From: an uncultured Alphaproteobacteria bacterium
GTDB lineage: Bacteria > Pseudomonadota > Alphaproteobacteria > RF32 > CAG-239
Direction of reading: 5' to 3'
Assembly (NCBI GenBank): GCA_944391505.1
Contig: CALXTV010000007.1
Coordinates: 2,839-66,838 of the forward strand
DNA length: 64,000 nt
The notes under the pieces were generated by a model. It did not search any database, was not told where the DNA came from, and saw nothing but the letters and a program-made list of their open reading frames with translations. This document shows positions 1,487 through 61,849 of the stretch, in pieces (positions within the stretch are counted from its first letter, which is position 1; each line of letters begins with the position of its first letter). Made by a program: the position numbers and the translations under genes.

Positions 1487-2281
1487 TTACAGACTCATTT
1501 CTTTTGCCGGCAGATTGGGGTGCTTGTTTTTGGAAATGATAAATGAGGGGAAGACGGTCATGCCGTCCCCGTAGCCGTAATAGCTGCTGGCCTTTGTCAA
1601 AATGTCTCTGGCTTCCAGAAAGGCACAGTTTCTTTTTCCGTCATTGGCGTGTATTTTGTTTTCAAATTGTCTTTTTTGTGCCGGCGTTGCCTCAATCGAC
1701 AATATTTTTGGAAGATGGGCGCCGGCGTTCGGCGTCGGATTGGCCGGATCATAAAAATAATCGCCGCCGGGGATTTTCATGCTGATAAAGCTGTGCGGTT
1801 CGCCGTCTTCATCGGAGGAATGGTGCAGCAGCTCGCCGCCGCAGTATTTTGAGTCAAACCCCTGCCTTTGCAGATAAGCCTGGGCAAGCAGGGCAATTTC
1901 GGCACAGGCGCAAATGCCGGCCGCAACGGCTTCGGAGAGGGTTTTGCTGCCTTTTTCGTCATAAAATTTTGCCCTTTGGTCTGTGTTGTCCGACAAGCCG
2001 GGATACATTTTTCGCAAAACATTGTCAAAGGCATACAGATGAGCGAAGGTTTTAAGGTCAAAACCGGGAGCGGCCTTGTCCAGCCACTGTTTCATTCCGC
2101 TGTCGGTTTCAATCCGCCGGGCGTTTTCTTCCGTTTTTTGAAAAAGCGCCTCAAAATTGTCAATATCGGCCGTAACGGCCAGATTAAAAGTACCGGGATA
2201 TGAACCGCCGATTAAAATTTTGTCGTTGTTTTGAATGTCGTCAATGCGGCAGCTTACGTCGTTTAACTTTTCAAAATTCAT
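1487..2281 (-). CDS. Transglutaminase-like cysteine protease domain protein
   Basis: Core motif GICACAEIALLAQAYLQRQGF (catalytic Cys) is followed by His and Asp positions (PHSF...DYFYDP), as in the TGase-like superfamily. Confidence 0.55.
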   Translation of the reverse strand: MNFEKLNDVSCRIDDIQNNDKILIGGSYPGTFNLAVTADIDNFEALFQKTEENARRIETDSGMKQWLDKAAPGFDLKTFAHLYAFDNVLRKMYPGLSDNTDQRAKFYDEKGSKTLSEAVAAGICACAEIALLAQAYLQRQGFDSKYCGGELLHHSSDEDGEPHSFISMKIPGGDYFYDPANPTPNAGAHLPKILSIEATPAQKRQFENKIHANDGKRNCAFLEARDILTKASSYYGYGDGMTVFPSFIISKNKHPNLPAKEMSL

Positions 2282-2387
2282 TTTCAGGCTCCAACTGCAA
2301 AAATTATATCATGTTTTTTATAAATTTTAAATTAACGAAATTCCCTTAAGCTGATTTTGAGTATTGGGGTAATATACGAAAAAGATA

Positions 2388-3008
2388 TTGATGATGAAAA
2401 ATCTGGTTGAAATTGCCGATCCGCATTTTATCGTCGATTTGATGTATGCGGGAACGACGCACAACATAACCGGCCGCCCGGTCTATGTGGAAATCGGCAT
2501 GGGAAATCATGCCTACGTCCATCAGGATCTATGGCAGGCGCTGCAAAAGCTTGTTCCTTATCTGGATAAGACGGGGCGCCGGCTCAAAATTTATGAAGCC
2601 TGCCGACCGGTCAAAGCGCATGAGCGTCTGTTTGCCGCCGTTCCGCGAGATGGTTTTTTTATCCCCGACGCCGGAAGTTCGCCGCATTGCCGCGCGGCAG
2701 CGGTTGACGTGGCGCTGGTTGGCGCCGACGGTGTCGAACTTCTCTATCCGACGCCGGTTGACGCCTATAATCCGTATTATGCCGCCGAAGTTCAGTCCGG
2801 CCGGCTGGACGGTTTTTTTGAATATCTGAAAAAGGCCGCGCTGAACTGCGAGGACAAAACCATACCGGAGACGGCCGTCCGCAATCGCGATGAACTCCGG
2901 GCGCTGATGGAAGGCGTCGGTCTGGTGCCGGTTCCGAGACTGCACGAATGGTGGCACTATGAGCTCCCCGACGGCCGGACGGATAAATATCCGCTGATTG
3001 ATTTCTGA
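2388..3008 (+). CDS. ddpX: D-alanyl-D-alanine dipeptidase (VanX/DdpX, peptidase M15D)
   Basis: LMYAGTTHN, SPHCRAAAVDVAL (the Zn-binding HxxxxxxD region) and EWWHYE are characteristic of VanX-family dipeptidases. Confidence 0.8.
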   Translation: MMMKNLVEIADPHFIVDLMYAGTTHNITGRPVYVEIGMGNHAYVHQDLWQALQKLVPYLDKTGRRLKIYEACRPVKAHERLFAAVPRDGFFIPDAGSSPHCRAAAVDVALVGADGVELLYPTPVDAYNPYYAAEVQSGRLDGFFEYLKKAALNCEDKTIPETAVRNRDELRALMEGVGLVPVPRLHEWWHYELPDGRTDKYPLIDF

Positions 3009-3468
3009 AAACGAAAAAGACGCTCTCCGGCAAAAAAAAGCTTTGATGTTTGCAAACGGCGTCGGCCGGGCTGTGTAACAGAAGTTATACCAACGGGTAA
3101 CCGCCCGCGGAAAAATATCCGCGGACTTGCACCGGCCGCACCGCAAAATGCCTATAGCAGATATTGTTTAAAATGCACTCATAACGAGTATATAAAATAA
3201 TTATACAGTATTAATATTTATATAAAATGTGAATAATGTTGATTGCTATGTAATAAATATTGATAAAATAACTTAAGTTAGTAAAAATCCGTAAAGATAA
3301 AAAGGAACCTACTAAATAAATAATGTTAATAATTATCATTCTTTGTTGAAGAAATTCCTAAGAAGACTTAATAATACACCAATAAAAACATGTTACGTGT
3401 TGCTTGATATTTGTAAATCATGAAATAATGTCGTTTTTTGTCTAATGAACTTAATTTTAAGGTAATGT

Positions 3469-4383
3469 ATGAATAGTCAAAATTTGATTTTAGATATTAG
3501 TGATATAATAGAGAAAAATACAAGTAATAATGCTTGTATTTTATTGGGAGATTCTCTAAAAATACTAAAATCGATTAGAGAAAAATCTATTAATTTGATT
3601 TTTGCAGATCCCCCCTATAATATAGGTAAGAATTTTGGTAATAATTTTGATAAGTGGAAAACAAAAGAAAGTTACATAAATTGGTGTAAAGAATGGATTA
3701 TTGAATGTATGCGTATCTTAAAAGATGATGGAACAATGTATTTTATGATGGCAACTCAATTTATGCCATATTTGGATGTTTTTGCATCAGAAAACTACAA
3801 CGTCTTATCAAGAATAATATGGAATTATGATAGTTCAGGAGTTCAAGCAAAAAAAATGTTTGGTTCTCTTTATGAACCTATCTTAATGATAAATAAATCT
3901 AAAAATAATCCATACACTTTTAATGCTAAGGATATACTAATTGAAGCTAAAACAGGGGCAAAACGAGGATTGATTGATTATAGAAAAAATCCACCGAAAC
4001 CATATAATACACAAAAAATTCCAGGTAATGTTTGGGATTTTTCAAGAGTCAGATTTAAAATGGATGAATATGAAAATCACCCAACCCAGAAACCAGAAAA
4101 GTTATTAGAACGTATTGTAAAAGTATCAAGTAATAGGGGAGATATTGTTTTAGATCCATTTGCTGGTAGTTTTACAACAATATCTGTTGCGAGTAAATTA
4201 GAAAGATATGGAATAGGTATAGAATTAAATCCTGAATATTATAAAATTGGTTTACGCAGACTCGGAATAACTCAAGAATTTAAGGAAAAAAAACTTTCTA
4301 AAGTAAAAAAGACCAGTAATGAATCGAAATCTCTAAGCTTTACGTATCATCAAGGAATTTTACCATTATGCGGGAATTTATAG
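3469..4383 (+). CDS. DNA methyltransferase, beta-class (motif IV DPPY precedes motif I FAGSFTT); N6-adenine or N4-cytosine
   Basis: IFADPPYN sits near the N-terminus and DPFAGSFTT near the C-terminus. GC is about 30% against about 52% for the flanks. Confidence 0.85.
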   Translation: MNSQNLILDISDIIEKNTSNNACILLGDSLKILKSIREKSINLIFADPPYNIGKNFGNNFDKWKTKESYINWCKEWIIECMRILKDDGTMYFMMATQFMPYLDVFASENYNVLSRIIWNYDSSGVQAKKMFGSLYEPILMINKSKNNPYTFNAKDILIEAKTGAKRGLIDYRKNPPKPYNTQKIPGNVWDFSRVRFKMDEYENHPTQKPEKLLERIVKVSSNRGDIVLDPFAGSFTTISVASKLERYGIGIELNPEYYKIGLRRLGITQEFKEKKLSKVKKTSNESKSLSFTYHQGILPLCGNL

Positions 4384-5429
4384 AAGAAATTCTAAAAGAA
4401 GAATATCAAAATAAATTTGAGTACATATTTAATAATAGTCCCTTATTACAATATTTGGATTGTAAAATGGGAGCTGTCTATGGAAATTCTAAAACAAGAA
4501 GAAGTTTAGCCAATATTTATGCAATCTATTCTATTTTAAATTTCTATGTTGAAGATTTTTATAACCAAAAAGAAAAATATAAATCATTTACAGGGTATCC
4601 GTATACAAAATTATTTTCGTTTTGTCGTCAGCTTTATGGGGGAGAAAAATTACAAAATCATGCTCTAAACAGTAGGGTTAATGGTGAATTTAAAAATAAA
4701 GAAAATACAAATGAGCTGATAATTATTGATAGTGGTAAATATGCTTTACATATAAATTTCTTGTATGTTGATGAAATTGATATTTCAAAAACAGCTATAA
4801 AGATTATCCAGAAATACATACAGCTTTTAATGGAGAAGGATAATGCTTTTGTTAAAGATTTAGAAGAGTTAAAGACATTAAAAACCATAAATGAAAAATT
4901 AGATAAATTAAACACTATGCTTACCGAAAAATCAGAAGCAAGAGTTTTTGAAATCATATCCTATGCAATTCTAAAGAACCACTATAAAGGAACAAAAATA
5001 TACTGGGGATATTCCCCTCAAAATTTGCAACAAGAGTTTCTTACTCTTTATAAAACGGGTAGAACTAATGCAAATGATGGCGGAATAGATTTTGTTATGA
5101 AACCATTAGGACGTTTTTTTCAAGTGACGGAAGTTATGGAAAATTATGATAAATATCTATTAGATATTGATAAGGTAATGCGATTCCCAATAACATTTGT
5201 AATAAAAACATTAAAAACAAAAGATATTGTAAAGAGTGAATTAGATAATTTTATTCAAATTAAGTCAGGAGGAATGGAGATTATTATTAATAGGTATAAA
5301 CAAGCGATAGAGGAAATTATTACTATTAATGAACTAAAAGAATGGATGTCTAATTTGTTTGATGTTGAGATTAATGCTGTAATTAATGATATTGAAATGT
5401 ATTATAAATTAGAAATGAATTTGTTATAA
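4368..5429 (+). CDS. Putative type II restriction endonuclease (partner of the methyltransferase)
   Basis: Its start overlaps the methyltransferase stop by 16 nt, indicating translational coupling. It shares the same AT-rich island and has a possible degenerate PD-(D/E)xK motif (IIDSG...FLYVDEIDISK). There is no recognisable homology beyond that. Confidence 0.4.
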   Translation: MREFIEEILKEEYQNKFEYIFNNSPLLQYLDCKMGAVYGNSKTRRSLANIYAIYSILNFYVEDFYNQKEKYKSFTGYPYTKLFSFCRQLYGGEKLQNHALNSRVNGEFKNKENTNELIIIDSGKYALHINFLYVDEIDISKTAIKIIQKYIQLLMEKDNAFVKDLEELKTLKTINEKLDKLNTMLTEKSEARVFEIISYAILKNHYKGTKIYWGYSPQNLQQEFLTLYKTGRTNANDGGIDFVMKPLGRFFQVTEVMENYDKYLLDIDKVMRFPITFVIKTLKTKDIVKSELDNFIQIKSGGMEIIINRYKQAIEEIITINELKEWMSNLFDVEINAVINDIEMYYKLEMNLL

Positions 5430-5519
5430 TTAAATAAAATAATAAGCTATATTAATATAATTTTTATGCAAATAGTCATAGTTAAAATTTGTTTAAAATG
5501 CAATTAATAAAATAAGTTT

Positions 5520-7200
5520 TTAGAACAAACCCGAAATTATGCCGTTTTCGTCGACGTCAATCCGTTCTGCGGCCGGATGTTTGGGCAATCCGGGCATGGT
5601 CAGAATATTCCCGGCCAGGGCAACGACAAATCCGGCGCCGGCCGAAAGCCTGACGTCGCCGACCGTAAAGCTGTAACCTTCCGGCGCGCCCTTGCGTTTC
5701 GGGTCGTCGGAAATCGAGTTCTGCGTCTTGGCAATGCAGACCGGCAGGCGGCCATAACCCTTGTTTTCAAATTCCGCCAGTTTTTGGGCGGCTTTGTCCG
5801 AGAAGACGATTTCCCCCGCCCGGTAAATTTCTCTGGCAATCAGACTGATTTTTTCTTTCAGCGGCAGTGCCGTGTCATAAAGCGGCGCAAAGCTGCCGGG
5901 CTGTTCCGCGGCTTTGATAACGTTTTGCGCCAGTTCCAGAACACCTTTGCCCCCGTTTTCCCAGCCGGTTGCCGTCACCGCTGCAACGCCGGCCGCCGCA
6001 CAAAGTTCCCGCAGCAGGGCGATTTCCGCGTTGCTGTCCGAAACAAAGCGGTTGATTGCCGCCACTGTCGGCACGCCGAATTTGGCCAGATTTTCGAGAT
6101 GTACTTTCAAATTGGCAAAACCTTTGCGCAGCGCTTCCGGGTTTTCTTCGCCGAGCCGGTCTTTTTCGACCCCGCCGTGCATTTTCAGAGCCCTTACCGT
6201 GGCCACGATAACCGCGGCGGAAGGTTTCAAACCGCCGATACGGCACTTGATGTCAAAAAACTTTTCCGCACCCAGATCGGCGCCGAACCCGGCCTCGGTT
6301 ACCACATAATCGGCCAGTCGCAAAGCGGTTTTGGTTGCAATCAGACTGTTGCAGCCGTGGGCAATGTTGGCAAACGGGCCGCCGTGTACCAATGCCGGCG
6401 TTTTTTCCAGCGTCTGCACCAGATTGGGACGGATGGCGTCTTTGAGCAGCGCGGCCATGGCGCCGACGGCTTTGATTTCGCCGGCCGTAACATACCTGCC
6501 GTCAAAGGATTGTCCGATAACAATATTGCCCAGCCGTTTTTTCAGGTCGTTTATGTCTTCGGTCAGACACAAAATCGCCATAATCTCGCTGGCAACGCTG
6601 ATGTCAAAGCCGTCGCGGCGGGGCAGGCCGTCAGCATTGCCGCCGAGCGCGATTTCAATATTGCGGAGCGCCCGGTCATTCAAATCCAGACACCGGCGCC
6701 AGCAGATTTTTTCCGGATCGATGCCGAGTTCGTTGCCCTGTTTGATATGATTGTCCGTCATGGCCGCCAGCAGGTTGTTGGCCGCGGTAATGGCATGAAT
6801 GTCGCCGGTAAAATGCAGATTAATGTCTTCCATCGGCACAATCTGCGAATAACCGCCGCCGGTTGCACCGCCCTTCAGGCCGAAACATGGGCCGAGCGAC
6901 GGTTCGCGCAATGCCGCCGCGGCGTTTTTGCCGCAAAGCCGGAGCGCGTCGGCCAGCCCAATGGAAACGGTCGATTTTCCTTCGCCGGCCGGGGTCGGTG
7001 TAATCGCCGTCACCAGAATAAGTTTGCCTTTCAGCGGTTTTCCGGCCAGTTCGCGCAGTTTGGCAAAACTGATTTTTGCCTTGTACCGGCCGTAAAGTTC
7101 AAGGTCGTCTTCGCCAAGCCCGATTTTTTCGGCAATGCGGACAATGGGCTCCGGCCGGTTTTGTTGCGAAATTTCGATATCTGATAACATTCGGGTCTCC
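5520..7200 (-). CDS. fhs: Formate--tetrahydrofolate ligase
   Basis: MLSDIEI start follows an AGGAGA RBS, and the family P-loop [11 protein letters not shown] is present. The 535-aa plus-strand ORF over the same span is a shadow ORF. Confidence 0.95.
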
Positions 7201-12881: not shown

Positions 12882-12903
12882 AAAAAACAAGCCTAAAACC
12901 CAA

Positions 12904-12931
12904 AGTCCCTCAAACGAGGGGCTTTGTTTTT
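12904..12931 (+). terminator. Rho-independent terminator
   Basis: ccctcaaacgaggg hairpin plus a T-run. Confidence 0.75.
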
Positions 12932-12942
12932 ATTACATGCTC

Positions 12943-13064
12943 TACAGAAAATCCGAGTTTACTCGGGGCTGAATGCAAAAGTGTCGTTAGACGACTGTTC
13001 CGCACCAACGGATGTAGTCAATCCGTAGGGTTGGGAGTTGATTAATTTTTCTCCAGTTTGTTGG
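12943..13064 (+). repeat. Structured GC-rich repeat element, copy A (homologous to 56383-56507)
   Basis: Shared block tacagaaaa-tccgagtttactcggggctgaatgc (hairpin ccgagt/actcgg). A second hairpin gtcgttagacgac sits at the aligned position of copy B gtgttggaacaacac. A conserved ccaacg...gtcaatccgtagggtt block follows, then a degraded terminal hairpin ctccagtttgttgg. Confidence 0.6.
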
Positions 13065-13138
13065 AAAATGTCTATTGGACAAAATATTGACTTAATAAAA
13101 CAATTTTGCTAAAATAAAAAAATAATAAGGATAACTTT

Positions 13139-51400: not shown

Positions 51401-52735
51401 GCCAAAATCAGAATCCGTTCGCTTCTGGCGGCACTGAAAGATATGCAGAGCAGAGAGCAGGGGGCAATGTCACAGGCATTCCGGCAGCCGCCCGTCTTTA
51501 CGGAAGAGATGAAAAAAACGCACACTATTCTCATTCCGCAGCTTTCGCCGATGCATTTTCAGTTTTTGGAGACCGTTTTTGCCAGCGAAGGATATAAGGT
51601 TGCGCAGTTGCCGAAAGTCAGCAAAAGCGCCATAGAGCTCGGTCTGAAACATGTCAACAACGATGCCTGTTTTCCGGCAATCGTCGTTATCGGACAGCTT
51701 TTGCAGGCCATTCGGGACGGCAACTATGATACAAACCGGATTGCGCTTCTTATCTCGCAGACCAGCGGCGGCTGCCGGGCATCAAATTATGCCGGACTTC
51801 TGCGCCGGGCGCTGGCTCAGTGTAACATGGCGCATATCCCGGTAATTACCATGAATGTCAGCGGCAATGTGGATAGCCCGGGCTTTATTCCGGGGCGGAA
51901 AATTCTGCTGCGTTCGATTATGGCCGGTTGTTACGGTGATGCGCTGATGCGGATGTTTAACCGTGTTTCGCCTTACGAAAAAATTCCGGGCAGCGCGCGA
52001 AAACTGCTGGACAAATGGGTCGCTGTTATCAAGGAAAATCTGAAAAGCGGCAATATCGTCAAATTCAACCTGAATATGTTTAAGATGATTCGCGAGTTTG
52101 ACAAACTGCCGCTCCGCAATATAAAAAGAAAACCTCGCGTCGGCCTGGTTGGTGAAATTTTGCTGAAATACCACCCCGATGCCAATAATCGCGCGGCTCG
52201 CATTATTGAGCAGGAAGGCGGCGAAGCGGTTATCCCCGATTTAATGGATTTTATGCTCTACGGATTTTATGATCATATCTTTAACTACAAATATTTACAA
52301 GGGTCTTGGAAAGCCTATGCCGTAAGCATATCCAGCATTGCTCTGCTGGAATTCTGCCGTTGGTCCATGCGTCTGGGTTTGGCGCTTTCCAAACGGTTTG
52401 AACCGCCCGTCTTTTTTAAGAATTTGCGTAAGAAAATTCGCGGCCTGGTCTCTCTGGGACATCAAACCGGCGAGGGTTGGCTGCTGACGGCCGAAATTGT
52501 CGAACTTTTGGAAGCCGGCGTCAATAACATATTATGTATGCAGCCTTTCGGCTGTCTCCCGAACCATATTACAGGAAAAGGCTTTGTCAAGGAAATCAAA
52601 AAGCGTTTTCCGAAAGCAAATATTATTGCCGTAGACTATGATCCGGGCGCCAGCGAAAGCAATCAGGTTAATCGGATTAAGCTGATGATGTCTATTTCCA
52701 AACAAGAACAGGAGGAAAACGGCAAAGCGGCCTGA
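48485..52735 (+). CDS. Giant fusion: two BadF/BadG/BcrA/BcrD-type (CoA-substrate-specific enzyme activase) ATPase modules plus a 2-hydroxyglutaryl-CoA-dehydratase (HgdB)-like domain
   Basis: Two copies of the GIDVGSTTVKAV / GIDSGSTTVKAV acetate/sugar-kinase-fold phosphate loops. Cys clusters (CKGCANHC). The C-terminal part is dehydratase-D-like. Confidence 0.85.
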   Translation: MTIRTEKGLYLGIDVGSTTVKAVVIDAKENILFSTYQRHLSEVRGKIASIIAEVAEKFPDAVFNLSMTGSGALSLCGKLNVSFVQEVIASSLSIKKLIPDADVIIELGGEDAKLTFLTSGTDLRMNETCAGGTGAFIDQMASFLNLEVGEMDELALKYKNIYPIASRCGVFAKTDIVPLINEGCAKSDIAMSIMQAVVNQFIGGLARGREITGKVVFLGGPLAFLKSLRRCFAETLKLDEANAVLPERAELFVALGAALHAKSCPGEAVRLNELKAALEKLDEEKDIQKLPPLFKNKREKEEFDARHRQTNVQTFPLENYEGYAWFGIDSGSTTVKAVLIDDKNHLLYSYYGPNNGDPFHIALKILEDIYSRAKPGLQIRAAAATGYGSALLKAGLKLDIDEVETVAHCEASVFFAPKASFVLDIGGQDIKCMKLKNGVIEKIGLNEACSSGCGSFIENFAKSLNMSMPAFVEAAINARHPVDLGTRCTVFMNSKVKQAQKEGASVGDIAAGLSYSVIKNACYKVIKINDVSELGDCIVAQGGSFLNDALLRALEIQVGKTVVRPGLSGLMGAFGAALLAKKRGPENGVKTGLISEEEIKNLQIKTTNTRCKGCANHCMLTITDFGGKKKFISGNKCEKGAGLTKNTKINLCAYKYKRLFDYYQPLPKERAVRGTVGIPRALNMYENYPLWFTLLTRLGFRVELSAPSSKKMFFSGYASIPSQTVCYPAKMAHGHIMDLLNKNVDYIFFPCIPREQKEFPSQADCYNCPVVTGYPELLAKNISELSESGIPFFAPFLPLDEKILAKRLKSVPLFAGFSSLQLRMAVKRAFVELRRFKKDIRNAGVEAVEKLKQSGEYGIVLAGHPYHIDPAINHGIPELINSCGLSVLTEDSVAHLRPNPEALRVRDQWTYHARLYRAGTFTAESRNLAILQLVSFGCGVDAITADQVEEIVTSKERLYAQIKIDEGDNLGPAKIRIRSLLAALKDMQSREQGAMSQAFRQPPVFTEEMKKTHTILIPQLSPMHFQFLETVFASEGYKVAQLPKVSKSAIELGLKHVNNDACFPAIVVIGQLLQAIRDGNYDTNRIALLISQTSGGCRASNYAGLLRRALAQCNMAHIPVITMNVSGNVDSPGFIPGRKILLRSIMAGCYGDALMRMFNRVSPYEKIPGSARKLLDKWVAVIKENLKSGNIVKFNLNMFKMIREFDKLPLRNIKRKPRVGLVGEILLKYHPDANNRAARIIEQEGGEAVIPDLMDFMLYGFYDHIFNYKYLQGSWKAYAVSISSIALLEFCRWSMRLGLALSKRFEPPVFFKNLRKKIRGLVSLGHQTGEGWLLTAEIVELLEAGVNNILCMQPFGCLPNHITGKGFVKEIKKRFPKANIIAVDYDPGASESNQVNRIKLMMSISKQEQEENGKAA

Positions 52736-53192
52736 AACGTCCGGAAAACAAAAAGATATTGACTTTTCTAAATCCATATTGTAAACAAAAGGCCGATAAA
52801 AGATTAGTAAGATATTATTCTATAAATTGCCTGAAGCATTTTACGAACGCAATTTGCCAAAGTCAGATTAAAAGGTTCAGCAGTCCGTCGAGATGAAAGA
52901 TTCTTGAAAAAGCTATGATTGACGAGGATGTTTTGCGTTTCCGCAAGTAATGACGAATGAAAACGGATAAAATGAAATTTCGGCAGTTTCCGTAAAAAAG
53001 AAAACAAATTGTTTCCATATAAATATTTGCTTATAAGTTTTCTTTCCCTTGAAATGTCCGTTTCAGGGGTTTTCTTTTATAAAATTTTTTTTGACATAGT
53101 GCCCATAACGACAATAGGTTAATTTGTTTGATATACTTAATAGGAAAAATATCCTTTCATTAGAGTTTGAAAATGAAAAGAATTACCTGTTG

Positions 53193-54428
53193 TTAATATG
53201 TCTTTTGAGACAGTAATGCTTGATTTATTGGTACATTAGATCTTGTGTTGCTGTTATTTTGTTTAACATGGGTTAGTAACGGATTAGTACCATGCCTTAA
53301 TGAAACAAGAAAATAATATTGTTGACTTTTACTCATACCTTGAAATTGTGTATGAGAAGTAGTTAAACCCTGATTTGGCAAAGGAGGCGGCATAGGATTT
53401 ACATATTCTTGAGCAACTTGTTGCCCCGTTTTGCTCAATTGTTTTGCACGTCCATAAATGCTTTCCTGTATTTTATTTAAATCAATTTTTTCAGCGGGAG
53501 TATAATTTTCATTATTTTGTAATTCTGAAATAGTTCTGTACATCCCATCAGCACCATTTTCATCATATTGTTTAATCATATTATTTCTGCGAGCTGTCAT
53601 ATTTTCACTTAGACAAGTATCAATAGGTTTATGCAGATTAGCAAAGTCTCGCCATTTTTTATCTATAATTTCTCCGTTTTCATCAAGTTCTAAAGGGATG
53701 ACTTTTTGTTGTTGCTTTTCTTGGTCGTATGCTGATATCCAAACTTTTTTAAGTTTATTCTGATGTGGAAATATTGCTGTTTCATTTTTATCATATGCTT
53801 TTTCTATATCAAACTCATCTGTAAAGTAATCATGATTAATATCGCCAAAACCTTGTCATTTTCCTTTACTTTCATACTCAAAAACGAAACCGTATATGAC
53901 CTTCCCGTCATGACAAGACAAAAACCTTGAATTATGTCCAGATCCCCGGGGTGTAACATAGTCACAGGCACCTTGCATAATTTGCTTATTTTGACCTGAT
54001 ATAGAAACATTTTCTTGTCTAGCCCCAAAAGCAGCACCATATGTATGTCCATAAACTTCATATTTAACCAATACAGCATAAGGATCACCACTAAAGCCTC
54101 CATGAAAAACAGAAGCTAACTCACCTTTGTTTTGTAATGACTCTATATTTTCTTTGTTCATTACAACAGGATCGACGCCATTTTCCATAACATTTTTTAT
54201 CATTTCATCAGCATAATCATCTAAGGATAAGTGATCTTTAAGAATTTCTTGATAGTTACTGCCATTAGCTCTGGCTATTATATTGATGTCTAAATTTCTA
54301 CCTATATCAGTAGCAGCCGGTGCAATTTCTTTACGAGTCATAGGATGGGATAAATATACTTTACCTCCTTGTTTAGATATAGCCTCAATTATTTTTATAT
54401 TTGCTTTTAATGCTTCATCCGGAGCCAT
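53193..54428 (-). pseudogene. Toxin-like 411-codon reading frame interrupted by one in-frame TGA (at 53856-53858)
   Basis: Track ORFs 53856..54428 and 53193..53600 are in the same frame. The sequence between them is open except for a single TGA (...ESKGK*QGFGD...). AT-rich island. Confidence 0.5.
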
Positions 54429-54532
54429 AAAGGGTGAATGAACACCTGTTTGGGTTACAATAAAAACATTTGGATTAGTGGCTCTTGGATCATCCTCAGT
54501 TAACCTCTCCTTTAAAGGCTTAAAACAAAGAC

Positions 54533-54931
54533 TTACCTTTTATTGCAAATTGTTGGATATTCCCAATTTCCTGATAATTTAGAACAATCTTGGGATATAA
54601 AGTCAAATTTACAATCATTATTATCAATATTCCAAGCTTTTTGATTATTTAGGCAAATTTCTTTAAATGTTTGATTGTTTGGGCAATTTGATAAATTTTT
54701 GCATTGTTTCAAAAGTTTTGTCTGTTCCGGTGTAAGTTTGATACAGCCAAATTCTTTTTTCCAAATTAAGCAATCATCTCGGCAAATATTATTTTGATAA
54801 TCCCATACTTGTCCGTTATCCACACAAGTATCAATACTCAACCAATAAGGATTGCGAATAAAGGAAATGCTTAAACCCAGTAAACATACGCCAAAAAAGC
54901 TTATCATTAATATTTTTATAATTTTTGTCAT
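54533..54931 (-). CDS. Cys-rich (12 Cys) membrane-anchored small protein
   Basis: N-terminal TM/signal anchor. Its start is 3 nt after the stop of the upstream SAA-like gene. Confidence 0.6.
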   Translation of the reverse strand: MTKIIKILMISFFGVCLLGLSISFIRNPYWLSIDTCVDNGQVWDYQNNICRDDCLIWKKEFGCIKLTPEQTKLLKQCKNLSNCPNNQTFKEICLNNQKAWNIDNNDCKFDFISQDCSKLSGNWEYPTICNKR

Positions 54932-54934
54932 TGC

Positions 54935-55393
54935 CTAATATTTTTTATTTGTTGATTTTTTTCTTTTAAATTCGCAACCATCTTTAGCATTTGTATATAG
55001 CCCACTTTTTGCTTGATGGCGCCCAAGCGAATTAATATATTTATCGTGTTCATAATCAGCATAAGCATCTATAGCTGATGTTCCTTTTATAATCCTATTT
55101 TTGAAATAGTCAATTCGTTCTTTAGCATCACCAATAGCTTCTGCTGTTTTCTCGCCCCATTTTCCTCTTTGGGTTGCTTCATAATTTGCTTTGCAATGAA
55201 AATAGTCATCGTTTCCAATTACATTATCTTCTTTCATATCATTATAATTTTTATACATGTCAGAAGCAGCACCAAAAATTTGAGCAAAAGGTGTTTCTAG
55301 TAAATTAGTCATTTTATTATTTCTGTTTGTTTGCTTTTTCTTCATTTGTTTTTCAGGATCTTCCTGAATGATATAACGTATAAGGTTACTCAT
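54935..55393 (-). CDS. Serum amyloid A (SAA)-like protein
   Basis: AAAGGA RBS. FGAASDMYKNYNDMKEDNVIGNDDYFHCKANYEATQRGKWGEKTAEAIGDAKERIDYF aligns with vertebrate SAA [59 protein letters not shown]. Confidence 0.75.
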   Translation of the reverse strand: MSNLIRYIIQEDPEKQMKKKQTNRNNKMTNLLETPFAQIFGAASDMYKNYNDMKEDNVIGNDDYFHCKANYEATQRGKWGEKTAEAIGDAKERIDYFKNRIIKGTSAIDAYADYEHDKYINSLGRHQAKSGLYTNAKDGCEFKRKKSTNKKY

Positions 55394-55780
55394 AATTTTT
55401 TCCTTTCATGATAATGTTTAGAGATTTAAAATAAAAAAAATCCGAAGAACTTAATCTTCAGATTTTGGATACACTTGTATCAAGTGATAATTAGTCTATA
55501 ACAAATATATATACAATTTTCAAGATATAAGTAAAATATGTCAACAACTTTTAATCTTTTTCTGTTTTACAATCCTCAAAATGATAGATATAATATTTTT
55601 GAAAATATGATTGATGATAAAAAACGTATAAACAATTAGTTATAATGAAAATATAGACTTTTTTCGGGTTCCTCGGAAAGGGTGGGGTGGCAGGATGTGT
55701 CAATACCAACCCATAAAACCTTGTTTCGTGTAAAATCAATAATTTATCTAAATATCGTCTGGGGTGTAAACCTCAAAGTT

Positions 55781-55878
55781 ATTAGCAGTTTTCATTAGCA
55801 CTGCTAATAAAATATATTAGCACAATTTCGCTGTCAATTAGGAATATCAAGGATTAACGGCGAATTTATTCTGCTAAT
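55781..55878. promoter_or_regulatory. Array of ATTAGCA(G/C) half-sites including a perfect 15-bp palindrome ATTAGCACTGCTAAT (55794-55808)
   Basis: Copies at 55781-55788, 55794-55808, 55816-55823 and 55871-55878, within the 670-bp AT-rich gap between divergent island genes. Confidence 0.35.
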
Positions 55879-56063
55879 AACTTTTATTATTAGGGTGATA
55901 TGAGAGATTTTTCCTAAAAGTTGTTGATATGTTCACTTGTAACTTGAAAATTGTATTTAATTTTGCTATAAGAAAAAAGCCACTTGCTATTAGTGTATCT
56001 AAATATACAAAATATTAAGAAATCACATAGTAAGTTAATCTATTATTTTGCCGGAGAGGAAAT

Positions 56064-56321
56064 ATGAAAGAACAAATTGTAAAATTTCTGCGTTTTTTGT
56101 GTGGGTATATTATACTAAGCTCTTTGGCCTTACTTATATTTAATGGGATTTCAGGCCCTAAAAATTATGTTTTTGGCTGGCCTTCCTTTATTTATATGGT
56201 AACATATCTTATTTATCCCCTAATAAGAAAACTCGGGAACATCAATAAGAAATATAGTGTTATTTATTTTTCAGTGCTATATTTTATTTTATGTTTTTTA
56301 TATTTTATATTTATCTTCTAA
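56064..56321 (+). CDS. Small membrane protein, hypothetical
   Basis: GGAGAGGAAATATG RBS. 85 aa with 3 hydrophobic helices. Terminator at 56341-56371. Confidence 0.45.
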   Translation: MKEQIVKFLRFLCGYIILSSLALLIFNGISGPKNYVFGWPSFIYMVTYLIYPLIRKLGNINKKYSVIYFSVLYFILCFLYFIFIF

Positions 56322-56340
56322 GCATATATTTTACTAATTT

Positions 56341-56371
56341 CAGCTCTACACACAAGTGTAGAGTTTTTTTT
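56341..56371 (+). terminator. Rho-independent terminator
   Basis: ctctacacacaagtgtagag plus a T8 run. Confidence 0.8.
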
Positions 56372-56382
56372 ATTAGTTGCCT

Positions 56383-56507
56383 TACAGAAAACCCCGAGTT
56401 TACTCGGGGCTGAATGCCAAGGTGTTGGAACAACACCGCTCCATGCCAACGAGCGTGGTCAAACCGTAAGGTTTGTAGCTGTTATAGAACCCCCAGTTTA
56501 CTGGGGG
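56383..56507 (+). repeat. Structured GC-rich repeat element, copy B (homologous to 12943-13064)
   Basis: tacagaaaaccccgagtttactcggggctgaatgcc, the hairpin gtgttggaacaacac, a conserved ccaacg...gtcaaaccgtaaggtt block, and a terminal second copy of the first hairpin (cccccagtttactggggg, 56490-56507). It is GC-rich inside an AT-rich island. Confidence 0.6.
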
Positions 56508-56529
56508 ATATCTATTGAAAGGAAACCTC

Positions 56530-57264
56530 ATGGTAAATTTATCAAATATTTTATTAACAGCAGGAAAAAAAATTACTAAAGCAATTGTCAAAAAAGAAGC
56601 CAGAGAGCATAGTGATACCATTGATGAATTCTCTAACTCAACGGCATTAAATCCGTTTGACGTTAAACCATTGAATGAAGGAGAAGATGAACGTATTGAA
56701 CAGATATTAAAATCTAAGGAGACATATGAACCTTATTATAAAAAACAACTTGAAAAACTTAACCAAAAACAAAAATTAATCCAAGATATAAATCAAAACA
56801 ATAACGCAGAAGAAGATATTTTATATAAACACCCTTCACAAATTACAGAAGCTGAAATAAAAAATAGTATGATTTATTCAGGAGACAAAACGTCTGACCG
56901 AGAATTAAAAGAACAATTGCAAAAGAAACAAAAAGATTGGTTTGATTTTTATTATGGTACAGATGCAATTAAAACGGATGCAGCCGGAAAATATATATCA
57001 CCTTCAATAAAGCATTCATTACCGGATGCTCCCGTTGAGCTTACAACCAAAGAAAAACTTCCGTTGATGAACGGATTTGATAAAATAGCAGAATATACAT
57101 CTAAGAATGATGTGAAAACATTGCAAAATAGGCTTAACAATCTTTATCAGAATGATACTTCTTTGCCACAATTAAAAGAAGATGGAATTCTTGGTAAAAA
57201 AACTACATCTCGTATAAAAAAAGCCCTTGTTGAATTTGGTGTAAATAAAATTACTCAAAACTAA
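56530..57264 (+). CDS. Protein with C-terminal peptidoglycan-binding (PG_binding_1-like) domain
   Basis: AAAGGA RBS. LQNRLNNLYQNDTSLPQLKEDGILGKKTTSRIKKAL matches the PGBD pattern (LQ..L..LGY...DGifG..T..A). Charged, K/E-rich N-terminal region. Confidence 0.65.
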   Translation: MVNLSNILLTAGKKITKAIVKKEAREHSDTIDEFSNSTALNPFDVKPLNEGEDERIEQILKSKETYEPYYKKQLEKLNQKQKLIQDINQNNNAEEDILYKHPSQITEAEIKNSMIYSGDKTSDRELKEQLQKKQKDWFDFYYGTDAIKTDAAGKYISPSIKHSLPDAPVELTTKEKLPLMNGFDKIAEYTSKNDVKTLQNRLNNLYQNDTSLPQLKEDGILGKKTTSRIKKALVEFGVNKITQN

Positions 57265-57748
57265 ATTTTTTACCATCAAATAATTTTTATAGAATAGGCT
57301 GTGTTTTTTTCAGCCTATTCTATACTATAAATTTCTTACCCTTCGTTTTGAGTGTAGGAATTGATTTTTGGCGATAAACTTATCGTAAAACAACCATATT
57401 TGCATTGGCTGACAAGGAAAACACTTAAAATAAAATATTTTTCGCACAGCTCCATAATTTTAATTGCAAATTAAGACCTTGGTTTATAATATAAACTCAG
57501 TTATGGGGGAATACTCCATAATCAGAACCAGAGATGGTTCGGGGCTTTCATCGGCTCTTATCGTGTACGGTGTTAGGATATAACATCGTCATATTGTTAG
57601 CTTGTAATTGGAGCTGACAGTAAATATATCCCCGATTAAAATTGGTAAAACTCTTTTGGTCGGGGAGCTTTTGGCGTATGTTCAGAAGTTTTTTGACTTT
57701 AAAGGCTAAGAGAATCATTTTACACGATATGATTGATGGACTCTCCGA

Positions 57749-57778
57749 CCACCTTAAATAGGTGGTTTTCTTTTAATT
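57749..57778 (+). terminator. Intrinsic terminator/attenuator ~30 nt upstream of the autotransporter start codon
   Basis: ccaccttaaataggtgg plus ttttcttttaatt. Confidence 0.55.
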
Positions 57779-57806
57779 GCAATTAAAGAAAAGGAAGTTT
57801 AATCAT

Positions 57807-60800: not shown

Positions 60801-60971
60801 TCGGCTTATGCGGTCGATGGCGAAGCTCTTGACCGTTTCGGAATGGAATTCGGTGCCGGTGTAACTGCGGAAGTTAACGACAATGTTGAGCTTTCTCTCG
60901 GTTATGAGGGCAAATTCCGCGATAATTACGAAGACCATACAGGCTTGATTAACGCTAAATATAAGTTTTAG
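57807..60971 (+). CDS. Autotransporter with large repetitive passenger domain
   Basis: AAGGAAG RBS, signal peptide MKKSLLMTTALVALVSASNARA, and an internal duplication (LTFEADHSLSQAISGGISNLASLSVNKGTLTYDK / LTFEADHSLSKALLGENIELASLNVNKGTLTFDK). The C-terminal beta-barrel ends ...INAKYKF. Confidence 0.9.
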   Translation: MKKSLLMTTALVALVSASNARAEDWTVSAPESIENQILNKDNVTIQAGGEVAISGDTESGIIAKSFTMEGGKLTATSVNGSADTGIFVKSDSSDINLNGGTIELTNSRIYKGNDTETSGDINISGGDITLNKDAYIEMRKENSGNVNITGGNLLLNENSALLINSNNDQEVEGNASKVIINGEGAQITATGNNRITGNIDFTNGTLTVSDNASLTSGDITMSGEDAQIDLSGQLNTNISGNGNITFQNSSSNIKGNVSGSHLTFEADHSLSQAISGGISNLASLSVNKGTLTYDKPSEGLLGDVKVAQGAGLNVNKFMQTNDLTLNGKVSINDDVAAQGNIKIADASIDLNGKSLNAIKEGITMTSGTINMNNGSGDQDLTLWAAKDINILGGTINMNGREAYIDTFYDLLNPDDHTPLPKPDTPGNINISNATINVNSNSAEISSEGKINVSDNAVINIASGAKLSSYESFSIKNADLVLGDKATINLTGTGAINIAGNLAANVEGDGNLNIKSSNAVIDGDIKGSQLTFEADHSLSKALLGENIELASLNVNKGTLTFDKQPTSITNLNVAGGLDIGTNTVKATNVSFKDNSTLKFTVAGKEDGSYGKIQASTIDISTTGTKLDLTLNSSVLGKDEAKDFTILDGSVSGDFAELSKNSRYEFEKLGNGQYKITGKASAADIATEAGGNANNVGTATAWDGVSLDNPSGSTSGQVANALAELAGKPDAASQKAYVDALTAVAPEVAPMVQHTQTETANQVFGAVGTRLTGGSVSTGGEGMSSGDNIFERAAMWVQGLFNKSKLDDTSKSYGFDADSNGIAMGAEKYVTEDTKVGLGYAYTNTDIDGFKRDTDVDTHTAFVYGEYKPSNWYVNGIASYGWSDYDESKNVAGVNVKSDYDAETFGLQAMAGYDMQMKHFGLTPEVGLRYVHISQDSYKDSADQRVSANDSDILTGVIGAKVSKTWTLENGMNIKPEARIAATYDLMNDDTNSVVTLANGSAYAVDGEALDRFGMEFGAGVTAEVNDNVELSLGYEGKFRDNYEDHTGLINAKYKF

Positions 60972-61078
60972 GAGGACTTGTCAAAATTTATTTTGACGTA
61001 AAAATGTCATCTTCAGAGCGAACAGAGCGTAAGTGAATGTAAGACCCGGAGATCTGGCGTTAAATCACTAAAACGAAA

Positions 61079-61112
61079 CAGCCTCGGATAAAAATATTCG
61101 AGGCTGCTTTTA
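61079..61112 (+). terminator. Rho-independent terminator of the autotransporter gene
   Basis: cagcctcg...cgaggctg plus a T-run. Confidence 0.8.
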
Positions 61113-61357
61113 TATAAATTGTTAAATAAGTTCAAAATATGTAAAGAAAAAATCCAGTTATTCAAAAGCAATAAACCAATATCAATAAGTTTCAGATTTC
61201 AGAATATCTTAACAGTTCCTATTGCTCAGAATATCATTGGTTAGTTGAGTTGATTGAATATGATAATAATAGTTTTAGGCGTAGAGGAGAAATTTATGGT
61301 ATCAAATCGGCTGTGTTTTTATCACAATCTATTTTTGTTTTGTTATTTATTCTATCT

Positions 61358-61849
61358 CTAATGAGTCAAATCGGCTTTGTCATCACATTCAATTCTTGCT
61401 TGATGGAGATATTCTTTTACTGTATTTTGAATCCAATATGTCGCCTTCCCAATTGCTATGGTGTTATACATATTTCCTCCGCGCACAGATGCAAAATCGC
61501 TATATTGTATCATATCATGAGCACAGGCATAATAGGCTGTAACCAGTGTATCAAAATTCTTTTTGACCTCAGCATTGTATTTTTTATAATTTCTGTCAAA
61601 AAGTTTATGGGCAACAGCAATAGAACAATCACCAAAATCATAAGCCGCATTATTCATATCTGCAGTTGAGGGAGCATCGGCCATTTGAATTTTGCAATTC
61701 GCCAATTCTTCTTCCAAACTACGAAGAAATGCATCTTCTTCACCTGAACATTTTTCTTGTTTGTCAGTGTAGGTTGATACTTTTTCTTCTGCTGCGGAAG
61801 CTTGTATAGATAATGCCAATGCCATTATTAATAATAAAATAAATCTCAT
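61358..61849 (-). CDS. Secreted Cys-containing protein (possibly DUF1311/LprI-like)
   Basis: Signal peptide MRFILLLIMALALSIQASA and 6 Cys. It is the last gene of the minus-strand island operon. Confidence 0.55.
   Translation of the reverse strand: MRFILLLIMALALSIQASAAEEKVSTYTDKQEKCSGEEDAFLRSLEEELANCKIQMADAPSTADMNNAAYDFGDCSIAVAHKLFDRNYKKYNAEVKKNFDTLVTAYYACAHDMIQYSDFASVRGGNMYNTIAIGKATYWIQNTVKEYLHQARIECDDKADLTH

Follow-up and report, generated by a model that had tools for sequence, protein, structure and literature searches.

A 142-bp repeat family at intrinsic terminators of uncultured gut Alphaproteobacteria, very probably non-autonomous derivatives of an IS200/IS605-type element

We detected a 142-nt repeat with sharp bounds in two copies, A (12934-13075) and B (56374-56515), in the window, i.e. 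the whole 64-kb stretch of DNA that was analysed. Both loci are very probably copies of a 142-bp non-autonomous transposable element (a MITE, or PATE) derived from an IS200/IS605-type IS that encodes only tnpA. The unit is 142 bp long, has no ORF, is present in many copies, carries the ends of an autonomous element, occurs together with that element on one contig (L027) and is polymorphic for insertion. A MITE/REP-like mobile element with hairpin termini was among the candidates of an earlier sequence-only reading, and this candidate was the right one, now specified as a non-autonomous IS200/IS605 element. The repeat is a new MITE family of a well-known kind of element, and is neither a new RNA gene or class nor a new system of regulation; no prior description of the family was found, as far as the searchable literature shows.

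Results

Two copies of the repeat in the window

Copies A and B can be aligned across ~142 nt. The 24-mer CCGAGTTTACTCGGGGCTGAATGC, common to both, occurs exactly twice in the window (0 expected, 100 shuffles), and the family covariance model run against the 64 kb matched only copies B and A (181 and 102 bits), the next-best match reaching 10 bits. The alignment, shuffles and covariance model confirm that the two-copy repeat reported earlier is real. The intervals first given for it (12943-13064 and 56383-56507) fell on the element, but the true ends, set by an empty allele and ~100 other copies, lie 8-11 nt further out on each side. The parts of the two copies and their flanks are as follows.

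12901..12926, + strand: host intrinsic-terminator hairpin of the upstream small gene at the copy A site; 11-bp stem, then TTTTTATTAC
12927..12933, + strand: T-tract and target TTTTTAT, with the putative left cleavage/target tetranucleotide C_L TTAT at 12930-12933 (flank counts and position logo)
12934..13075, + strand: copy A of the 142-nt putative MITE; 101/143 identical to the consensus, 102 bits in the covariance model
12948-12951, + strand: left guide AAAA of copy A (sequence and alignment)
12952..12968, + strand: left-end subterminal hairpin IP_L of copy A, with a 1-nt deletion in the 5' arm (sequence and alignment)
12983..12995, + strand: internal hairpin H2 of copy A, GTCGT-TAG-ACGAC, compensatory relative to copy B
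13052..13065, + strand: remnant of the right-end hairpin of copy A, TCCA...TGGA (sequence, alignment and covariance model)
56342..56365, + strand: host intrinsic-terminator hairpin at the copy B site; 10-bp stem, then T-run, unchanged in the empty allele L133
56366..56373, + strand: end of the terminator T-tract and target, with C_L TTAT at 56370-56373; the empty allele reads ...GAGTTTTTTTTAT joined to TGAAAGG
56374..56515, + strand: copy B of the putative MITE, canonical; 141/142 identical to the commonest family sequence, 181 bits
56388..56391, + strand: left guide G_L AAAA, 4 nt 5' of the hairpin foot; (near-)invariant columns A15-A18
56392..56409, + strand: left-end subterminal hairpin IP_L, CCCCGAG-TTTA-CTCGGGG, with the left cleavage point 18 nt away
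56421..56437, + strand: internal hairpin H2, GGTGTTG-GAA-CAACACC, with family-wide compensatory changes
56441..56458, + strand: internal hairpin H3, CCATGC...GCGTGG, a candidate structure with little covariation; an overlapping alternative stem GCTC/GAGC is possible
56460..56475, + strand: internal hairpin H4, CAAACC-GTAA-GGTTTG; similarity to the tnpA 3' end (GTTTGGAGCTGT) in the 3' arm and the bases that follow
56486..56489, + strand: right guide G_R AGAA; near-invariant columns A113, G114, A115 and A116
56490..56507, + strand: right-end subterminal hairpin IP_R, CCCCCAG-TTTA-CTGGGGG (CCCCCAGTTTACTGGGGG), oriented like IP_L; 5/7 pairs compensatory, identical in the autonomous IS
56512..56515, + strand: C_R CTAT, tetranucleotide of the right cleavage; these 4 nt close the element 8 nt past the hairpin foot, at the empty-allele boundary

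Copy B, present in some strains and absent from others, is a recent insertion that can probably still be mobilised. Copy A (~71% identical to the family consensus) is old and decayed. Because its right-end hairpin and right guide are destroyed, it is probably immobile now; it keeps the terminal CTAT (13072-13075). Three further assemblies of this species (L001-L003) also carry copy A, which was thus present in 4/4 assemblies of the species seen. The 1-nt deletion leaves hairpin 1 of copy A with only 6 bp, and the 7-bp stem described earlier for both copies holds for copy B alone. The description of the other hairpins was accurate: the second differs in sequence between the copies with its pairing kept (GTCGT/ACGAC in A, GGTGTTG/CAACACC in B), and copy B ends in a further hairpin, CCCCCAGTTTACTGGGGG, which in copy A has decayed to TCCA/TGGA.

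Insertion sites and guide sequences

The locus of copy B was found in L133 with the element absent. This allele lacks exactly 56374-56515 and reads ...TTTTTTTTAT joined directly to TGAAAGG, with flanks 98-99.5% identical to those in the window and the flanking genes intact. Two more pairs of occupied and empty sites were detected (L024 versus L022/L040/L039, and L105 versus L050). The element inserts 3' of TTAT with no clear target duplication. Flank and element both end in TAT, so the empty alleles, which bear on the target-site duplications raised earlier, show none that is unambiguous, and a 3-bp TAT duplication is still compatible with the sequence.

Among unique left flanks 85/102 end in TTAT and 56/102 in TTTTTAT, and conservation of the terminal CTAT reaches at least 98% among 84 unique right ends. 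When the guide register is taken from IS608 (PMC5934647), the IS608 rule predicts T-T-x-T, i.e. TTAT, from G_L AAAA, and C-T-x-T, i.e. CTAT, from G_R AGAA, both of which are the sites observed. The difference between left and right at position -4 (T vs C) is mirrored by guide position 2 (A vs G). From hairpin to cut there are 18 nt at the left end and 8 nt at the right end. The subterminal hairpins, CCCCGAGTTTACTCGGGG (IP_L) and CCCCCAGTTTACTGGGGG (IP_R), stand on one strand in direct orientation, and no inverted repeat is formed by the termini TAGTTGCC... and ...ATATCTAT. Covariation of guide and target in diverged IS was also considered and rejected: the guide ACTA of L027 fits its flank GTAT, the ortholog L135 has the flank TTCT, and L136-L139 are too decayed.

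Transposition of single strands in the IS200/IS605 family is biased to the lagging-strand template. Here the top strand of the element coincides with the G-rich strand at 73 of 106 loci (p ~1e-4), a bias confounded with gene orientation in the MAG contigs. Both window copies lie on the + strand, in positive skew.

Autonomous relatives

We detected full-length elements (L027, L030 and L118-L127) with left and right ends as in the MITE, encoding a Y1 HUH transposase. In L027 (3507-4072) and L118-L127 the MITE-type ends flank a 142-aa ORF, and in L030 the exact MITE left end is joined to the 5' end of tnpA. These parent-type elements are ~560 bp long (559-566 bp) and carry tnpA only. The 142-aa ORF matched Pfam Y1_Tnp (1.9e-31) and NCBIfam transpos_IS200 (122.9 bits, cut-off 55), and alignment to ISHp608 TnpA (2A6M) showed DKDHIH (HUH motif) and YVEFQ (catalytic Tyr motif) to be conserved. 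Between MITE and IS the right 33 nt are 100% identical and ~40 nt match on the left; the tnpA-bearing unit with the shared ends was found at 5 or more different sites, and both forms stand together on contig L027. No tnpA was found by tblastn in the 64-kb window, so mobilisation in the source genome is presumed.

The 65-nt interior (H2-H4), when compared with the sampled full-length elements, matched them in only 12 nt, at the 3' end of tnpA. The compensatory changes in H2 go beyond what a minimal TnpA model requires.

Family members and hairpin covariation

An exact 22-mer of the element occurs in more than 114 loci of ~39 species-level gut alphaproteobacterial MAGs, which gives the count of copies in related genomes that had been proposed, just as the covariance model gave two copies and no more for the window. 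Each of several MAGs has at least 9-13 detected loci. Many of the 22-mer matches are located at contig ends, since repeats break assemblies. Sixteen copies, drawn from 8 or more species-level genomes, have 100% identity to one another, with orthologous flanks only 73-87% identical. The plasmid search gave no match to the element; in IMG/VR the left-end 22-mer had no match and the right-end 22-mer matched one mini element. Derivatives with a single hairpin, REP-like in look, were detected in L140 and L085.

Compensatory changes were found in several hairpins across the family. In H2, 32 sequences have UA and 10 have CG at pair 62/68, and 36 have GC and 3 have AU at pair 60/70. IP_R has compensatory changes at 5/7 pairs, and IP_L exists as CCCCGAG/CTCGGGG, CCCCCAG/CTGGGGG and CCCCCAT/ATGGGGG. 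The alternative H3 stem GCTC/GAGC is compensatory in two sequences (L016 and L065) and is inseparable from the CCACGC/GCGTGG stem. A closing stem that would join the variable 5' linker (positions 2-8) to the likewise variable segment 104-113 had no compensatory pattern in the subfamilies of the alignment. The earlier claim that compensatory changes point to selection on secondary structure is supported by these family-wide pair counts.

Terminators and neighbouring genes

Both window copies directly follow a terminator-like hairpin with a T-run (12901-12926 and 56342-56365), as noted earlier, and the pattern extends to the family: 70% of sites abut an intrinsic terminator, versus 4-19% of comparable intergenic sites. 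Insertions overwhelmingly abut the T-tract of host intrinsic terminators. The hairpin at 12901..12926 is host sequence, with a different hairpin at every other insertion site. When the distance from terminator stem to insertion was considered as a measure of right-end mimicry, A/T pairs extended the stems into the T-tract. Head-to-tail arrays exist, and in 4/5 of them the copy nearest the terminator is the best preserved, an order expected if the retained left-flank TTAT is re-used.

Genes for exported proteins had been placed 25-75 nt downstream of both copies. Both copies do precede a same-strand gene, but it starts 63 nt past copy A and 14 nt past copy B, and a signal-peptide-like N-terminus is obvious only for the gene after copy A; the gene after copy B encodes a peptidoglycan-binding domain. 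The tie to exported-protein genes is a coincidence, because at 37/64 independent sites the downstream gene is convergent; the distances to the next gene vary widely.

Discussion

The element very probably arose by internal deletion from a ~560-bp tnpA-only IS200-type IS of the same clade of uncultured gut Alphaproteobacteria. From this parent it keeps the left end (the 18-nt linker ending in the guide AAAA, then IP_L) and, on the right, the guide AGAA followed by IP_R and the tail ATATCTAT. TnpA (Y1 HUH), provided in trans by a full-length copy, would bind both hairpins on the single-stranded top strand and cut 3' of TTAT in the left flank and 3' of the terminal CTAT on the right, with the cuts placed by base-pairing to the guides. 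A single-stranded circle would then be excised and re-inserted 3' of another TTAT with no target duplication. The order of these steps, the catalysis by TnpA and the single-stranded intermediate would follow the IS608 paradigm, and transposition as such is suggested by polymorphism and copy number. The observed basis consists of end homology, exact boundaries, guide/site complementarity, copy number, presence/absence polymorphism and site re-use.

The hairpin covariation most simply reflects ssDNA hairpins used by TnpA, not RNA. A family of free-standing small-RNA genes, or a cis-regulatory leader 5' of genes for exported proteins, both proposed from the sequence alone, would explain the covariation by RNA structure, and would suit the five hairpins per element, the folding z-score of -5 for copy B, the compensatory pairs and the same-strand gene after both window copies. 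Such RNA is very unlikely here, however, and is already largely refuted. The reverse strand folds equally well, and wobble counts across the hairpins (22 G-T vs 18 A-C) have no strand specificity. Rfam 15, in which a known family might have been found, gave 0 matches at gathering score for the whole window and none at threshold for both loci at E up to 10. No sigma-70-like promoter was detected in the canonical copy, the ends are identical to those of the tnpA-bearing IS, the empty allele L133 keeps intact flanking genes, and the frequent convergent genes at varied distances do not suit a leader.

We also considered that the MITE is co-opted or tolerated for an effect on the host, with U-tailed end hairpins that reinforce or insulate termination, or with a structured small RNA made by read-through, as from the 5'UTR of IS200 in Salmonella, which would add to the transposon reading and is in our view rather unlikely. 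Terminator-like scores were obtained for the right-end hairpin with AUAUCUAUU (top strand) and the left-end hairpin with UUUUCUGU (bottom strand), H2 keeps its pairing by compensatory changes, and copy A has been retained long, at 71% identity, in all four species assemblies seen. The left-end hairpin of classical IS200 is a bidirectional terminator, and its 5'UTR and antisense RNAs are functional (PMC4513863, PMC5435999). Against a host effect, the canonical copy contains no promoter-like site, and copies are polymorphic between strains and decay freely, as neutral insertions would. Template switching can also yield compensatory changes in DNA palindromes in the absence of selection.

Two readings with other mobile or guide-RNA systems were weighed against the IS200/IS605-derived MITE. 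A REP/REPIN element mobilised by a domesticated RAYT is extremely unlikely. RAYTs are from the HUH Y1 superfamily too, the repeat lies outside genes in many hairpin-bearing copies, and the one-hairpin minis resemble REPs, but with REP_Tyr_transpos (cut-off 80) the transposases reached 29.1 and 27.7 bits, compared with 123 bits for transpos_IS200. RAYT genes typically occur as single copies with REPs on either side, whereas tnpA here sits inside a mobile unit bounded by the shared left and right ends at 5 or more sites, and the 142 nt with distinct direct ends are not an inverted REP doublet. There is likewise a very slight chance that the interior is an omega RNA scaffold for TnpB/IscB and that the MITE exploits RNA-guided homing. 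IS200/IS605 right ends commonly carry omega RNAs, and the interior is structured and of about the right size, but the ~560-bp parents carry tnpA only, with no room for and no trace of tnpB/iscB, no RNA family matched, and no tnpB-linked copy was found in ~0.9 Mb of loci. The TnpB literature treats PATEs beside such guide-RNA systems (PMC10055086).

Integron attC sites and class C group II introns, which associate with hairpins or terminators, were dropped as candidates: the ends match the tnpA element, and no intron or ribozyme signal was found.

The position of the MITE at terminators has a parallel in a survey (ISME J 2026), where terminator-like sequences were strongly over-represented just upstream of IS elements, most strongly for IS200/IS605, and were read as limiting transposase expression (PMC13548323). 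The pattern is alike for the IS and the MITE here, and since the MITE is gene-less, silencing of a transposase cannot apply to it. The terminator with its T-tract resembles the right end of the element itself, a hairpin with an 8-nt tail ending in YTAT. We tentatively suggest, as a possible though doubtful explanation, that the IS200-type transposase system may actively recognise intrinsic-terminator hairpins (hairpin and T-tract ending in TTAT) on ssDNA, so that the bias would come from structure-guided targeting and not as a by-product of selection; this is suggested because the gene-less MITE shares the bias of the IS and because the same terminator is struck repeatedly, giving arrays. H2 may possibly tune target choice, by analogy with the second left-end hairpin of IS608 in vitro.

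The gene-less derivative is useful in separating terminator targeting by IS200/IS605 from selection on transposase expression. The family is a natural replicate of the IS608 guide/site rule with other nucleotides (AAAA/TTAT and AGAA/CTAT). The repeat accounts for fragmented assemblies of an abundant, uncultured clade of gut Alphaproteobacteria, and its exact boundaries can be used for masking and annotation and as a strain-level presence/absence marker.

Among known systems, we know of no strong association with terminator hairpins described for IS608 of Helicobacter pylori. IS608 otherwise shares with the family the directly oriented subterminal hairpins, the left tetranucleotide outside the element ~19 nt 5' of the hairpin (18 here), right-end cleavage a few nt downstream of the right hairpin, the 4-nt guides 5' of the hairpins in the same register and the insertion with no target duplication (PMC3201880, PMC5934647). 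In IS608 cleavage takes place 19 nt and 10 nt away from the feet of the hairpins (PMC3201880), and its guides AAAG and GAAT pair with TTAC and TCAA, respectively (PMC5934647). The position of H2 matches that of the small second hairpin 3' of IP_L in IS608 (PMC5934647). The family differs in the target (TTAT, not TTAC), in the right site (CTAT, not TCAA) and in having no tnpB.

REP/REPIN-RAYT systems are likewise extragenic hairpin repeats with an HUH Y1 enzyme acting on ssDNA hairpins with an adjacent conserved tetranucleotide; they differ in that the transposase here is an IS200-type equivalog and the element is a defined 142-bp unit with distinct left and right ends. PATEs, for which mobilisation in trans is presumed, are short, ORF-less, multi-copy elements that have kept only the hairpin-bearing ends of IS200/IS605 (PMC7290912, PMC3119063). 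The MITE is distinguished from them by its conserved structured interior, at least 9-13 copies detected per MAG and head-to-tail arrays at terminators.

Salmonella IS200 is notoriously immobile, whereas the family from uncultured gut Alphaproteobacteria is evidently active or recently active (identical copies, presence/absence polymorphism). IS200 of Salmonella and IS1541 of Yersinia make up the tnpA-only group of the IS200/IS605 family. The autonomous relative resembles them in being very small (~560 bp, with 707 bp for IS200), in its one Y1 HUH tnpA and in a GC-rich hairpin near the left end, and the window has only its 142-bp non-coding derivative. A second inverted repeat in the autonomous relative, CACGACGACGAT ... 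ATCGTCGTCGTG, could sequester the ribosome-binding site and start codon, as in IS200/IS1541 (PMC4513863). The best sub-threshold Rfam match on the element was STnc490 (21.8 bits vs 56; left end of copy B, minus strand), which is art200, the antisense RNA of IS200 (PMC4513863), and gives a weak hint of IS200 origin.

Two copies of a repeat family from gut Alphaproteobacteria

The window holds two copies of the repeat, on the following positions:
12934-13075 (+), copy A, decayed
56374-56515 (+), copy B, canonical

The copies are alignable over ~142 nt. A 24-mer common to both occurs exactly 2 times in the window, with 0 expected from shuffles, and a covariance model built from the family detected only copies B and A in the 64 kb (181 and 102 bits, respectively; next match, 10 bits). 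The sequence-only reading had placed a structured element at both sites, at 12943-13064 and 56383-56507; the element stands and its actual extent is slightly wider. The architecture described there was recovered, including the GC-rich hairpin near the 5' end, the second hairpin with differing sequence and preserved pairing, the conserved block CCAACG...GTCAA.CCGTA, the repeat of hairpin 1 closing copy B on its 3' side and the host terminator directly upstream of both copies.

A search for further copies, suggested by the same reading, used a 22-mer of the conserved block and matched it exactly in more than 114 stretches of a species-representative genome collection. Among the matches listed, all are in uncultured gut Alphaproteobacteria MAGs (human, mouse and deer gut; some named, e.g., "Azospirillum sp. 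51_20" and "Acetobacter sp. 46_36"), at least about 39 assemblies are represented, and several MAGs have at least 9-13 loci each. Many matches lie within ~100 nt of a contig end, which is the signature of an assembly-breaking repeat. Both boundaries are sharp when copies are stacked: on the left, variable sequence is succeeded by (T)nAT and then by the first element bases, TAGTTGCCTTACAG, and on the right the element ends in ...GGGGGATATCTAT before variable sequence resumes. Complete (100%) identity is shared by 16 copies drawn from at least 8 species-level genomes, while orthologous flanking DNA of such genomes is only 73-87% identical, so the element is much younger than the genomes or moves between them.

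Copy B matches the commonest family sequence at 141/142 positions, has intact guides and hairpins, and varies in presence between strains; it is a recent insertion and probably mobilisable. Copy A (101/143) has lost 1 nt from the left hairpin; its right guide and right hairpin are ruined and its interior is rearranged. It was found in 4/4 assemblies of the species seen, and is an old fossil.

No plasmid among 72,556 gave a match. Among human faecal virome sequences, four "Bacteriophage sp." contigs without annotation (matches H1-H4: MT839539.1, MT838190.1, MT835812.1, MT836093.1) have copies at 73-87% identity. These contigs are prophage or transducing DNA from the Alphaproteobacteria concerned, or else the virome preparations were contaminated with bacterial DNA. 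In IMG/VR the left-end 22-mer found no match, and the right-end 22-mer found one, a 43-nt one-hairpin mini element directly after a terminator and TTTTTAT. This and a second mini derivative are REP-like minimal units made of left linker and guide, one hairpin and right tail:
L140 (IMG/VR contig), ~1834-1876 (-), TGTTGCCTTACAGAAAA-CCCCCAGTTTACTGGGGG-ATATCTAT
L085, ~5555-5584 (-), GAAA-CCCCGAGTAAACTCGGGG-ATATCTAT

The autonomous parent element

The parent was detected by searching for left or right ends that had no partner at the spacing expected, which led to contig L027. This contig has a 142-aa ORF with a right end just 3' of it and, just 5', a diverged left end. The ORF matches Pfam Y1_Tnp (1.9e-31) and NCBIfam transpos_IS200 (122.9 bits, cut-off 55), is below the REP_Tyr_transpos cut-off (29 vs 80), and by these profiles is an IS200-type transposase; alignment to the solved ISHp608 TnpA demonstrated that both the HUH motif and, towards the C-terminus, the catalytic tyrosine motif are conserved. 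In L030 an exact MITE left end is joined to the start of the same transposase gene. The TnpA P0003 (92% identical) is encoded on ten contigs, representing five insertion sites. At all of them, TTTTTAT in the left flank is followed by T(G/A)CAAGCTTTGCTGAAAA-CCCCCAG(T/A)TTACTGGGGG and then tnpA, and the element closes after tnpA with GAGAA-CCCCCAGTTTACTGGGGG-ATATCTAT. The full element is 559-566 bp long, with tnpA as its sole content.

The MITE and the full element share ~40 nt at the left end and, at 100% identity, 33 nt at the right end; the MITE interior has no clear counterpart in the full element except 12 nt at the tnpA end. No tnpA was found within the window. With the ends of a tnpA-only element around a different interior, the 142-bp repeat falls under the MITE/PATE definition, and the mobile-element candidate of the sequence-only reading (MITE/REP-like) becomes an IS200/IS605-derived MITE; elements of this kind are well known, while the family is undescribed. 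Such a MITE is termed PATE, the category for the IS200/IS605 family (PMC7290912). The residual interest is in the terminator targeting and the conserved internal hairpin; the MITE is otherwise ordinary in kind and cleanly characterised.

In four contigs encoding P0003 (L122-L125) the left flank of the IS is identical and the right flanks are of three kinds, a pattern suggestive of chimeric assembly or of recombination among IS copies. L053 3740-3851 (+) is a solitary right end with a tnpA-type terminator hairpin (GGAAGGCACCTTTAAGGTGCCTTTCC ... GGGGATATCTAT), preceded by a small membrane-protein-like ORF instead of tnpA; it may be an IS derivative with a passenger gene, or a rearrangement.

Insertion point and terminator association

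Tracing the gene downstream of copy B into other assemblies provided an empty-site comparison. Another strain (L133; flanks 99.5% and 98% identical) has the locus without the element, reading GTGTAGAGTTTTTTTTAT directly into TGAAAGGAAACCTCATGG, while the window has 142 bp between TTAT and TGAAAGG. Four other contigs of this locus begin inside the element, which therefore breaks assemblies here. Two more pairs of occupied and empty sites, in different species, give the same result (L024 vs L022/L040/L039; L105 vs L050). From these three comparisons, insertion is 3' of TTAT; the check for target-site duplication gave none that is obvious, and a 3-bp TAT duplication is formally possible because flank and element both end in TAT. 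The left flank ends in TTAT at 85/102 unique sites (TTTTTAT at 56/102), and the last four bases of the element, CTAT, are at least 98% conserved.

A strict terminator-like hairpin with T-run adjoins 71/102 unique occupied sites, and several of the remaining ones have imperfect hairpins. For unoccupied sites the proportion is 1.7-9.9% overall (TTAT to TTTTTAT) and 3.8-18.6% in crude intergenic space only. The autonomous IS has the pattern at 4/5 insertion sites. We also detected five head-to-tail arrays.

Head-to-tail arrays of MITE copies
L059, 3428-3830 (-), three copies
L049, 3442-3712 (-), two or three copies at one terminator
L068, 3377-3635 (+), two or three copies at one terminator
L014, 4276-4480 (+), two or three copies at one terminator
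L009, 137-381 (+), two or three copies at one terminator

In 4/5 arrays the best-preserved copy is at the terminator and older copies lie downstream, decay rising with distance from it; this order fits repeated insertion at the same retained left-flank TTAT. A 2026 survey found terminators enriched upstream of IS elements, most for IS200/IS605, and read them as limiting transposase expression (PMC13548323). Since the MITE is gene-less, its bias must stem either from target preference or from host-level purifying selection for harmless sites, and our data fit both. At L024 7482-7568 (-) the insertion is right after a conserved ~100-nt structured element rather than an ordinary terminator, with a sub-threshold Rfam match to skipping-rope RNA (28.8 bits, gathering 36.7, E 4.8e-05). 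L022, L039 and L040, all with the site empty, have this structured element conserved.

Hairpins, guides and the IS608 model

For 44 distinct copies, a five-hairpin model had 97% of cells paired vs 39-46% with partners slid, and ten pairs with double changes vs 3.3 in shuffles. The covariation noted between the two window copies thus extends to the family. Compensatory changes are concentrated in the right-end hairpin (5/7 pairs) and the internal hairpin H2 (UA to CG in 10 sequences, GC to AU in 3), and H1, H2, H3 and the right-end hairpin were also obtained independently with RNAalifold. The invariance of the 3' arm of H1, the left-end hairpin, is uninformative because the search pattern fixed it; across family members H1 changes are compensatory (CCCCGAG/CTCGGGG, CCCCCAG/CTGGGGG, CCCCCAT/ATGGGGG). 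G-T and A-C mismatches are about equal (22 vs 18), so neither RNA nor one strand is singled out. Selection for DNA hairpins needed by TnpA is the simplest reading, less certainly so for H2.

In IS608 the protein does not itself read the cleavage sites, which pair with 4-nt guides just 5' of each hairpin (left, AAAG with TTAC; right, GAAT with TCAA), guide base 1 pairing with position -3 and base 2 with -4 in the crystal structure (PMC5934647, PMC3201880). Our reading of both published pairs is that guide base 4 pairs with position -1. In this register the MITE left guide AAAA predicts T-T-x-T, where the actual target is TTAT, and the right guide AGAA predicts C-T-x-T, where the actual end is CTAT. 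The two sites differ only at -4 (T vs C) and the guides at one matching position (A vs G). On the left, 18 nt separate the cut from the foot of the hairpin, and on the right the cut falls 8 nt past the hairpin, similar to 19 and 10 nt in IS608 (PMC3201880). H2 occupies the same relative position as the small second hairpin just 3' of the IS608 left hairpin; in vitro, this second hairpin has a modulating effect on target pairing (PMC5934647). By analogy, the hairpins and guides of the MITE would be used as in the IS608 mechanism.

IS200/IS605 elements have a known bias for the lagging-strand template. The element top strand is the G-rich strand in 73/106 loci, as in the window, a count confounded with gene orientation and consistent with this bias.

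RNA-gene and leader explanations

A small RNA family and a cis-regulatory leader had also been proposed for the repeat. Across the whole window no Rfam 15 family reached its gathering score, scans of the two loci at permissive settings yielded chance-level matches only, and the canonical copy has no sigma-70-like promoter, which argues against an RNA gene. One chance-level match, at the copy B left end on the minus strand, was STnc490 (21.8 bits, gathering score 56), which is art200, the IS200 antisense RNA (PMC4513863), and is of interest in hindsight. Against a leader, the next gene is convergent at 37 of 64 independent sites and co-directional at 22, at widely varying distances. The gene downstream of copy B, whose ribosome-binding site lies 5 nt past the element, is itself intact in the empty allele. 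Because orientations and distances vary and this gene is intact without the element, the proposed tie to exported-protein genes is a coincidence, and the MITE explanation is retained.

Reverse-strand ORFs that read into the MITE gain a common C-terminal peptide, ...GLTTLVG(V/M)ERCCSNTLAFSPE:
L035, 4915-5739 (-), 274-aa ORF running into a truncated copy and ending in the peptide
window, 56400-56621 (-), ORF with the same C-terminal peptide, probably spurious

Surroundings of copy B

AT-rich islands lie at 52000-64000 and 2000-6000 of the window (GC 0.29-0.41 vs 0.45-0.50 elsewhere). The former, around copy B, contains small unannotated ORFs and the following genes:
54935-55393 (-), 152-aa protein, Pfam SAA 9.5e-20
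56530-57264, peptidoglycan-binding-domain protein
57777-60971, autotransporter, 1064 aa

The serum amyloid A domain is named for the vertebrate protein and seems unusual in a gut bacterium; SAA-domain homologues adjoin the IS200 copy in L027/L135 (L027 2479-3207; also L128). The genes of the 52000-64000 island resemble surface or secreted cargo gained by horizontal transfer.
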